A DNA stretch of 64,000 bases, from assembly GCF_013122565.1 (NCBI RefSeq), contig NZ_CP053258.1; one strand, given 5' to 3'. Shown piece by piece: positions 3,665-28,143 of the stretch (positions are counted from its first letter, which is position 1; every line of letters starts with the position of its first letter). The translations under genes and the position numbers were made by a program. Under the pieces are notes generated by a model, which worked only from the letters and a program-made list of their open reading frames with translations, made no database searches and was not told where the DNA came from. The DNA is from Escherichia coli (GTDB lineage: Bacteria > Pseudomonadota > Gammaproteobacteria > Enterobacterales > Enterobacteriaceae).

Positions 3665-5089
3665 TTACTGCATTAACAGGTAGATGGTGCTGTCGCCGCG
3701 CTGAATGTTCAGTGCCAGCACAGACGGTTTGCTGTCGAGAACTTTACGCAGTTCAGCGATGTTTTTCACTGCCTGCTGGTTCGCGCCAATAATCACATCA
3801 CCTTTCTTCAGGCCGATCTGCGCAGCCGGAGTGCCCGTTTTCACGTTGTTCACTACCACGCCCTGATCTTTGCCTTTGTTGCTCATCTCAGCGCCTTCAA
3901 TGCCGTTGAAGATGGAGCTGGAATCAACCTGATTCTGGCTGCTCTGCTGCAGTTCCAGGTTCACGTTAACCTGCTTACCGTCGCGCAGTAAGCCCAGAGT
4001 CAGTTTGCTACCCACCGGCATAGTACCCACCTGAGCACGCAGCGCGGCAAAGCTGCTGATCGGCTTACCGTTCAGTGAGGTGATCACATCACCCGCTTTA
4101 ATGCCCGCTTTTGCAGCGGAGGAATTAGGCAGAACCTGGCTTACGAAAGCACCGCGCTGGGCGTCAACTTTCATCGCTTTGGCCAGTTCGGAGTTCAGCT
4201 CAGTCCCCATAATACCCAGCTCACCGCGTTTCACCTGGCCGTATTCCACCATCTGCGAGGTCAGGTTTTTCACCATGTTACTCGGGATAGCAAAACCGAT
4301 ACCGATGTTGCCGCCGTCCGGTGCGAGGATCGCGGTGTTGATACCGATCAGTTCGCCGTTCAGGTTAACCAGCGCACCACCGGAGTTACCACGGTTGATC
4401 GCAGCATCGGTCTGGATGAAGTTTTCGTAGTTTTCGGCATTCAGGCCGCTACGCCCCAGCGCAGAGACAATCCCGGAAGTTACCGTCTCGCCCAGACCAA
4501 ATGGGTTACCAATCGCTACGGTGTAATCACCCACGCGCAGTGCATCAGAATCCGCCATCTTAATTGCGGTCAGGTTTTTTGGGTTCTGGATTTGGATCAG
4601 CGCGATATCAGAGCGCGGATCTTTGCCAACCATCTTCGCGTCGAACTTACGACCATCGCTCAGCTGGACTTTAATCACTGTCGCGTTATCAACAACGTGG
4701 TTGTTGGTGACGACATAGCCTTTATCGGCATCAATGATGACGCCGGAACCCAGCGCCATGAATTTTTGTTGCTGGCCGCCACCATTACCGCCCTGGCCCC
4801 CCTGGCAGAACGGAGAGCTCTGGAACGGAGAACCTTCCTGGCAGAACGGTGAATCATCACCGAAGAACTGCTGGAAATTACGCGGCATACGCGGCGTATT
4901 AACGGTTGTGCTACCTTCTACGTTAATGCTGACCACTGAAGGCATCACCTTTTCGAGCATCGGTGCAAGGCTTGGCATCTGCTGGGCTGTCGTTGCTGAA
5001 GATGTCTCAGCCGCCGTTGCAGAGAGCGGAGATAACGCCAAACCTAAACTCAGAGCCAGTGCACTCAGTGCTAATGTGGTTTTTTTCAT
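3665..5089 (-). CDS. degP: Periplasmic serine endoprotease DegP (HtrA)
   Basis: 474-aa ORF with signal peptide, trypsin-like protease core (GNSGGAL) and two PDZ-like C-terminal repeats; recognised as DegP. Confidence 0.96.
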   Translation of the reverse strand: MKKTTLALSALALSLGLALSPLSATAAETSSATTAQQMPSLAPMLEKVMPSVVSINVEGSTTVNTPRMPRNFQQFFGDDSPFCQEGSPFQSSPFCQGGQGGNGGGQQQKFMALGSGVIIDADKGYVVTNNHVVDNATVIKVQLSDGRKFDAKMVGKDPRSDIALIQIQNPKNLTAIKMADSDALRVGDYTVAIGNPFGLGETVTSGIVSALGRSGLNAENYENFIQTDAAINRGNSGGALVNLNGELIGINTAILAPDGGNIGIGFAIPSNMVKNLTSQMVEYGQVKRGELGIMGTELNSELAKAMKVDAQRGAFVSQVLPNSSAAKAGIKAGDVITSLNGKPISSFAALRAQVGTMPVGSKLTLGLLRDGKQVNVNLELQQSSQNQVDSSSIFNGIEGAEMSNKGKDQGVVVNNVKTGTPAAQIGLKKGDVIIGANQQAVKNIAELRKVLDSKPSVLALNIQRGDSTIYLLMQ

Positions 5090-5134
5090 GTATTTCAGTC
5101 TCGATTAACAGATAACGCAAAATTGCTGTGTTCT

Positions 5135-25789: not shown

Positions 25790-26686
25790 ATGACAGACAC
25801 ACACTATATTGGCCGCTTCGCCCCCTCTCCTTCCGGCGAGCTTCATTTTGGTTCTCTGATTGCTGCGCTTGGCAGCTATTTGCAGGCTCGCGCCCGGCAA
25901 GGTCGCTGGCTGGTACGCATTGAAGATATCGACCCGCCTCGTGAAGTTCCCGGTGCCGCAGAAACTATCCTGCGCCAGCTGGAACATTACGGTCTGCACT
26001 GGGACGGCGATGTTCTCTGGCAATCGCAACGTCACCACGCCTATCGCGAAGCACTCGCCTGGTTACATAAACAAGGACTAAGTTATTACTGCACCTGCAC
26101 GCGTGCGCGTATTCAAAGCATTGGTGGTATTTACGACGGTCATTGCCGGGAATTGCATCATGGACCAGATAACGCCGCAGTGCGTATCCGCCAGCAGCAT
26201 CCGGTCACCCAGTTTACTGACCAGCTGCGCGGCATTATTCACGCCGAAGAAAAACTGGCGAGGGAAGATTTTATTATTCATCGCCGTGATGGTTTGTTTG
26301 CCTATAACCTGGCGGTGGTGGTGGATGATCACTTCCAGGGCGTGAGCGAAATTGTCCGCGGGGCAGATTTGATCGAACCGACAGTGCGGCAAATCTCGCT
26401 GTACCAGCTTTTTGGCTGGCAAGTGCCAGATTACATTCATCTGCCGCTGGCGCTTAATCCACAAGGCGCTAAACTTTCCAAGCAGAATCATGCGCCTGCG
26501 TTGCCGAAAGGCGATCCACGCCCGGTACTAATCGCGGCACTTCAATTTCTGGGGCAGCAGGCAGAAGCACACTGGCAGGATTTCAGCGTCGAGCAAATCC
26601 TTCAGTCAGCCGTCAAAAACTGGATGCTGACCGCCGTGCCTGAGTCGGCAATTGTAAATTCAACATTCTCAAATGCGTCATGCTGA
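25790..26686 (+). CDS. gluQ: Glutamyl-Q tRNA(Asp) synthetase (GluQ-RS, YadB)
   Basis: Class I aminoacyl-tRNA synthetase-like ORF (HIGH-like motif [10 protein letters not shown]); start set at [10 protein letters not shown] (25790); the track ORF extends to an in-frame ATG at 25760, which would place the dksA terminator inside the ORF. Confidence 0.85.
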
Positions 26687-26745
26687 GCTATGATTAGCCG
26701 CTATTTTTTTGTCCTGAATGATGTTTGACACTACCGAGGTGTACT

Positions 26746-28143
26746 ATTTTTACCCGAGTCGCTAATTTTTGCCGCAAGGTGCTAAGCCGCGAGGAAAGCG
26801 AGGCTGAACAGGCAGTCGCCCGTCCACAGGTGACGGTGATCCCGCGTGAGCAGCATGCTATTTCCCGCAAAGATATCAGTGAAAATGCCCTGAAGGTAAT
26901 GTACAGGCTCAATAAAGCGGGATACGAAGCCTGGCTGGTTGGCGGCGGCGTGCGCGACCTGTTACTTGGCAAAAAGCCGAAAGATTTTGACGTAACCACT
27001 AACGCCACGCCTGAGCAGGTGCGCAAACTGTTCCGTAACTGCCGCCTGGTGGGTCGCCGTTTCCGTCTGGCTCATGTGATGTTTGGCCCGGAGATTATCG
27101 AAGTTGCGACCTTTCGTGGACACCACGAAGGTAACGTCAGCGACCGCACGACCTCCCAACGTGGGCAAAACGGCATGTTGCTGCGCGATAACATCTTCGG
27201 CTCCATCGAAGAAGACGCCCAGCGCCGCGATTTCACTATCAACAGCCTGTATTACAGCGTAGCGGATTTTACCGTCCGTGATTACGTTGGCGGCATGAAG
27301 GATCTGAAGGACGGCGTTATCCGTCTGATTGGTAACCCGGAAACGCGCTACCGTGAAGATCCGGTACGTATGCTGCGCGCAGTACGTTTTGCCGCCAAAT
27401 TGGGTATGCGCATCAGCCCGGAAACCGCAGAACCGATCCCTCGCCTCGCTACCCTGCTGAACGATATCCCACCGGCACGCCTGTTTGAAGAATCGCTTAA
27501 ACTGCTACAAGCGGGCTACGGTTACGAAACCTATAAGCTGCTGTGTGAATATCATCTGTTCCAGCCGCTGTTCCCGACCATTACCCGCTACTTCACGGAA
27601 AATGGCGACAGCCCGATGGAGCGGATCATTGAACAGGTGCTGAAGAATACCGATACGCGTATCCATAACGATATGCGCGTGAACCCGGCGTTCCTGTTTG
27701 CCGCCATGTTCTGGTACCCACTGCTGGAGACGGCACAGAAGATCGCCCAGGAAAGCGGCCTGACCTATCACGACGCTTTCGCGCTGGCGATGAACGACGT
27801 GCTGGACGAGGCCTGCCGTTCACTGGCAATCCCGAAACGTCTGACGACGTTAACCCGCGATATCTGGCAGTTGCAGTTGCGTATGTCCCGACGTCAGGGT
27901 AAACGCGCATGGAAACTGCTGGAGCATCCTAAGTTCCGTGCGGCTTATGACCTGTTGGCCTTGCGAGCTGAAGTTGAACGTAACGCTGAATTGCAGCGTC
28001 TGGTGAAATGGTGGGGTGAGTTCCAGGTTTCCGCGCCACCAGACCAAAAAGGGATGCTCAACGAGCTGGATGAAGAGCCGTCACCGCGTCGCCGTACTCG
28101 TCGTCCACGCAAACGCGCACCGCGTCGTGAGGGTACCGCATGA
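26746..28143 (+). CDS. pcnB: Poly(A) polymerase I
   Basis: Nucleotidyltransferase family ORF ([10 protein letters not shown]); track ORF starts 26725, but E. coli pcnB is reported to initiate at a non-canonical AUU codon, giving (M)[16 protein letters not shown] at 26746 (465 codons); stop overlaps folK start. Confidence 0.85.

Follow-up and report, generated by a model that had tools for sequence, protein, structure and literature searches.

The AUU start codon of pcnB in Escherichia coli and its conservation across Enterobacteriaceae

The poly(A) polymerase I (PAP I) gene pcnB, in a 64,000-nucleotide stretch of Escherichia coli DNA (hereafter the window), is very probably translated from an AUU codon at position 26746, as indicated by the sequence, curated annotation, a comparison across 80 Enterobacteriaceae species, and the literature on strain K-12. 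This start is already known: its experimental demonstration is reported from 2002, and standard annotation includes it. Read directly, the upstream frame runs TGA(26719) TGT TTG(26725) ACA CTA CCG AGG TGT ACT ATT(26746), and downstream of the ATT it continues as TTT ACC CGA GTC GCT AAT TTT TGC CGC AAG GTG, encoding the expected N-terminal peptide, and stays open to the stop codon at the end of the gene (Table 1). A preliminary description of this DNA had placed the PcnB N-terminus at the ATT, and the reading bears this out. The same description had located the nearest in-frame ATG seven codons upstream, at 26725, and here it was mistaken: that codon is TTG, and an in-frame TGA closes the frame behind it. 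Because of this TGA, no in-frame ATG lies upstream of the pcnB ATT; the two ATGs near the start (26718-26720 and 26721-26723) are both out of frame.

Table 1. Features of pcnB and its flanks, with positions in the window
Feature	Position	Strand	Remarks
TAAACT, reported -10 element of sigma-S promoter pS2	26470..26475	+	
Predicted sigma-70 promoter, TTCTCA / 17-base spacer / TATGAT	26666..26694	+	spans the gluQ stop codon
In-frame TGA closing the pcnB frame upstream	26719..26721	+	direct read
In-frame TTG, seven codons upstream of ATT	26725..26727	+	rival start; first triplet of a TTGACA hexamer; misread as ATG in the preliminary description
Shine-Dalgarno (SD) sequence GAGGTG, four bases before ATT	26736..26741	+	invariant in 80/80 species
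ATT (AUU) start codon of pcnB	26746..26748	+	direct read, RefSeq, NF008634 position 1, 80/80 species
pcnB coding sequence (PAP I)	26746..28143	+	465 codons plus stop; stop codon at 28141-28143
Codons 2-9 (TTT ACC CGA GTC GCT AAT TTT TGC)	26749..26772	+	near-invariant, including synonymous sites
GTG, codon 12	26779..26781	+	matches the start of 454-aa database entries (MLSREES...)
ATG, codon 52	26899..26901	+	first in-frame ATG downstream of ATT
ATGA overlap of pcnB stop codon and folK start codon	28140..28143	+	

In RefSeq, the pcnB coding sequence begins at this ATT (position 1747 of locus L001), and its product, WP_010723084.1, has 465 amino acids. A profile search matched PcnB to the NCBIfam equivalog NF008634 with 997 bits (cut-off, 702) over profile positions 1 to 468 of 469, and position 1 of the profile aligned to the residue encoded by the ATT. 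Pfam domains PF01743, PF12627, and PF12626 are listed for P0002, a database protein identical to PcnB. Residues 28 to 442 are identical to PDB entries 3AQK-3AQN, which span only those residues and are therefore uninformative on the N-terminus. The crystallised construct starts one residue before codon 29 (26830-26832), which is GTG (Val) in E. coli and ATG (Met) in 73 of the 80 species. The gene order in the window is sfsA, dksA, gluQRS (gluQ), pcnB, folK, and the conserved context formed by dksA, gluQ, pcnB, and folK is thus present; the same four-gene order was found in a more distant locus (L084), and folK directly follows pcnB in loci L085 to L089. The GluQ protein of the window presumably differs from that of K-12 at some amino acid positions.

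Among complete E. coli genomes, 5424 of 5426 matched the pcnB region; three of the 5424 matches sit on plasmid-labelled records. The 70-mer at 26711-26780 was found exactly in 5415 of these 5424 genomes, including BL21 and the K-12 derivative BW25113, and the single variant inspected was changed only at -2, in the spacer. No complete E. coli genome held an exact match to the same 70-mer with ATG replacing ATT. Since the 70-mer is identical in K-12 derivatives, experiments carried out in K-12 are applicable to the sequence of the window.

The 80 species compared (pcnB plus flanks, 86 to 100% protein identity) all had ATT at the codon aligned to 26746. GAGGTG at -10 to -5 was likewise invariant in all 80, the 4-base spacer that follows it was variable, and the sequence beyond -11 varied freely and carried indels. 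Each of the 13 other invariant Ile columns in the gene mixes ATT with ATC, and some include ATA as well; the start column, alone of the 14, shows neither alternative. Because an ordinary Ile codon would alternate with ATC, the start column, fixed as ATT, is unlike an ordinary Ile codon.

These patterns bear directly on whether translation might begin instead at the UUG at 26725, yielding a 472-residue protein (MTLPRCTIF...) in which the ATT would be read like any other internal Ile codon. The UUG is in frame and is one of the canonical start codons, the list of open reading frames gives a TTG-started frame at 26725-28143 (472 aa), and 472-aa PcnB entries are numerous in databases. The introduction of one paper (PMC3561954) even names UUG as the pcnB start, but the paper is inconsistent, its discussion naming AUU, and other papers on the pcnB start also say AUU. 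Across the species compared, TTG occupied the -7 codon in just 26 of 80, ATG occupied it in 2 (Salmonella), some other upstream candidate was present in 9, and in 43 the stretch from the upstream in-frame stop to the ATT held no ATG, GTG, or TTG. Furthermore, the 16 bases before the TTG hold no SD-like sequence, the seven residues that it would add fall outside the NF008634 profile, the sequence upstream of -11 carries indels, and, going by the 13 other Ile columns, an internal codon at this position should be ATC in some species. We therefore consider initiation at the UUG in place of the AUU very improbable, while minor use of this codon beside the AUU may occur.

A start downstream of the ATT, at the GTG of codon 12, would turn the conserved upstream sequence into an untranslated leader. 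This GTG is invariant in all 80 species, and 454-aa proteins starting MLSREES are common in databases; its only SD-like bases, however, are an AAGG that abuts it without a spacer. The 11 residues before it are invariant, and changes within the first 12 codons across the 80 species are few and all synonymous at the third position. Distant homologs also carry, at their N-terminus, the motif encoded upstream of the GTG, and the NF008634 profile covers the residues in question, so that a start at codon 12 is exceedingly improbable.

A different proposal keeps the AUU start and adds to it a shorter isoform, initiated at the ATG of codon 52 (26899) on transcripts that would arise, under special conditions, from pS1, a sigma-S promoter inside the gene. 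Going by the predicted protein size, that ATG is probably the start proposed in 1989. In vitro, pS1 is an active promoter, whereas its activity in vivo is confined to non-growing cells that lack ppGpp; two PAP I bands have been seen on western blots, and a downstream ATG was described (PMC2939334). The authors of that paper nonetheless termed the shorter isoform uncertain. Codon 52 is Met in only 23 of the 80 species and Leu in the other 57, a start there would drop a conserved N-terminal segment that includes an invariant His, and the SD-like AAGG lies just 2 to 3 bases away. On balance, we regard the additional isoform as unlikely.

Database entries for orthologous PcnB proteins show at least four N-termini (465 aa from the ATT, 472 aa from the -7 codon, 454 aa from GTG codon 12, and about 447 aa; P0002, P0013, P0014, and P0105). 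Gene callers that ignore ATT would account for this divergence. In Salmonella (L021 and L022, around 1480-1503), ATG occupies the -7 codon, and P0013, the common Salmonella enterica entry, has 472 aa and begins MTLPRCAIF; since the SD and the ATT are unchanged there, the annotated 472-aa start is doubtful. The upstream in-frame ATG reported earlier for the window would be true for Salmonella. The practical point is one of annotation: the correct pcnB start is recoverable from conservation alone.

The layout around the AUU start extends beyond these species. A first protein search returned only sequences of at least 86% identity, and more distant relatives were taken from a search of representatives. 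In “Candidatus Erwinia haradaeae,” GAGGTG-TCCT-ATT is followed by TTT ACC CGA, and the protein is annotated from the ATT. In Thorsellia kenyensis (L087, 1147-1203), GAGGTG-TATT-ATT lies in frame 15 codons upstream of the annotated GTG start; judged by this sequence, the true N-terminus is probably missing from the protein as annotated. A 67%-identical homolog (CP043324.1, locus L084) has GAGGTG-TACC-ATT, and the GAGGTG-N4-ATT motif with its spacing recurs in L084, L085, and L087. In CP043324.1, pcnB is called as two open reading frames of 316 and 150 aa (L084, 1501-2998), pointing to a frameshift, a pseudogene, or an error in the assembly. At 55% identity, a homolog has an ATT aligned to that of E. 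coli, placed behind GAGGAT-AGAGTT and not GAGGTG-N4; at 45% identity, another has an ATG directly preceding the same N-terminal motif. When N-termini were aligned, the canonical starts called for distant homologs fell 0 to 4 residues from the ATT column, immediately ahead of an amphipathic motif that the homologs share. The SD and ATT layout in the wider relatives agrees with a statement, attributed to Binns & Masters in PMC3561954, that AUU may also be the start of homologs in many Proteobacteria.

Conservation at the start is not limited to the ATT and the SD. Across the 80 species, synonymous codon entropy in codons 1-9 was 0.05 bits, compared with a gene mean of 0.95, making this the lowest 9-codon window in pcnB. 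Codon 4, the rare Arg codon CGA, was fixed in all 80. Among 276 invariant columns encoding neither Met nor Trp, 13 used a single codon in all 80 species, and 7 of these 13 fell within codons 1-12 (Fisher p = 5e-8; the test takes no account of linkage between sites or of how closely the species are related). At the same loci, the opening nine codons of gluQ and folK had no similar synonymous constraint, and no description of frozen synonymous sites in pcnB codons 1-9 was found in the available literature. Together with the strong SD, the frozen codons suggest, at the level of sequence, that the whole initiation region is finely tuned and not the start codon alone, which would fit the emphasis that PMC5499595 places on the context of rare start codons. 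More tentatively, the block from -11 to +27 (CGAGGTG, the variable 4-base spacer, and the nine codons from ATT to TGC) could be a dedicated cis-element under nucleotide-level selection that includes the CGA. If it were, AUU initiation might rely critically on the sequence downstream, or PAP I levels might be set by an RNA or protein regulator bound to the block.

A second stretch of low synonymous variation was seen at codons ~35-48 (26848-26889), with a single-codon run, CGC AAA GAT, at codons 41-43. This stretch may correspond to pS1, the internal sigma-S promoter of PMC2939334, the text of which gives no coordinates for pS1. The promoter was also considered as a cause of the frozen codons 1-9, but by our reading it more likely lies near codons 35-45.

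The pcnB SD was predicted to form a duplex of -9.8 kcal/mol with the 3' end of 16S rRNA, the fourth strongest among 46 neighbouring genes. By this predicted complementarity it is a strong SD and not a poor one, at odds with two papers (one of them PMC3561954) that term the pcnB ribosome binding site poor. The gene has what marks the AUU-initiated class, an ATT at the required start position and an SD at working distance. GAGGTG-N4-ATT occurs once in the window, and at least one copy was present in 27 of 100 shuffled sequences, so the motif by itself is within chance. What goes beyond chance is the pattern across species; an ATT before a conserved peptide proves nothing alone.

A hairpin given by RNAalifold, in which the SD (CG-GGUG) pairs with codons 3-4 (UACC-CG) and the AUU sits in the loop, was rejected. 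It is weak (-4.7 kcal/mol; z = -0.26 against shuffles), and compensatory changes are lacking, since all paired columns are either invariant or changed on one side only. The same pairing is missing in Thorsellia and imperfect in L084. The pcnB start region was in fact less structured than shuffled sequence (z of +1.2 to +1.4), and Rfam returned no match over it up to E = 1. Matches above the gathering score elsewhere in the window were a tp2 sRNA (62916-63029, + strand) and the HtrA 5' UTR thermometer upstream of degP (5084-5129, - strand).

Upstream of the gene, the predicted sigma-70 promoter was the sole promoter-like site between 26300 and 27000 and is probably the published pB, described as the major pcnB promoter (PMC2939334). 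Many genera share a conserved block at 26681-26710, GAGCTATGATTAGCCGCTATTTTTT, which extends across the gluQ stop codon and carries the TATGAT -10 element followed by a G+C-rich stretch; this block is probably the core of pB. In E. coli YD786 (L083, 1189-2397), an IS4-like ISVsa5 transposase gene lies between gluQRS and pcnB, and the match to the window breaks at about 26678, within the predicted promoter. For the sigma-S promoter pS2, PMC2939334 gives TAAACT as the -10 element and locates the start sites at -263 to -265 relative to the ATT. These sites map to 26481-26483, 6 to 8 bases past the TAAACT of the window, and this agreement in distance identifies the ATT of that paper with 26746.

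PAP I marks RNAs for degradation and governs plasmid copy number. The AUU is reported to limit it to about 30 to 50 molecules per cell, and an excess is toxic (PMC2939334 and PMC3561954). In the mechanism that we propose, the invariant strong SD (GAGGUG, four bases upstream) would position the 30S subunit at the AUU, which the initiator tRNA would read as fMet. As a near-cognate start, the AUU would have a few percent of AUG activity, in keeping with reporters in which AUU gave ~1-3% of AUG (bioRxiv 10.1101/063800). By analogy with infC and from the general behaviour of the factor, IF3 would discriminate against the pcnB AUU, and PAP I output would thereby be kept low, which is important given the toxicity of an excess.

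Six texts (PMC2939334, PMC3561954, PMC5499595, PMC4447247, PMC9764084, and bioRxiv 10.1101/063800) cite Binns & Masters 2002 for AUU initiation as a limit on PAP I synthesis, the demonstration of AUU initiation being credited to that work in K-12. No start-site ribosome-profiling (retapamulin) evidence on pcnB was found in the literature. The further claim of the preliminary description, that the AUU start limits poly(A) polymerase, draws support from the RefSeq annotation, the NF008634 profile, the sequence identity with K-12, these citing papers, and the invariance of ATT and SD in 80 species. The weak AUU start is an established part of how the cell keeps PAP I scarce.

The closest known system is pcnB of E. 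coli K-12 itself (Binns & Masters 2002, Mol Microbiol 44:1287), with the same gene, codon, and RefSeq start and 70 identical bases. No substantive difference from it was found; the window strain is not K-12 and has a different fimbrial operon downstream. The other AUU-initiated gene of E. coli is infC, which encodes IF3, and there the AUU limits expression via discrimination against non-canonical starts, as it would for pcnB. Unlike pcnB, infC is autoregulated, because its product is the discriminator itself. To our knowledge, PAP I has no role in start codon selection, and pcnB would thus be a passive client of IF3 levels. A further parallel is ebpA of Enterococcus faecalis (PMC4447247), in which a rare ATT start attenuates expression and automatic annotation misplaced the start, as for pcnB; it differs in being an unrelated gene of an unrelated organism, the product of which is a pilus tip protein.
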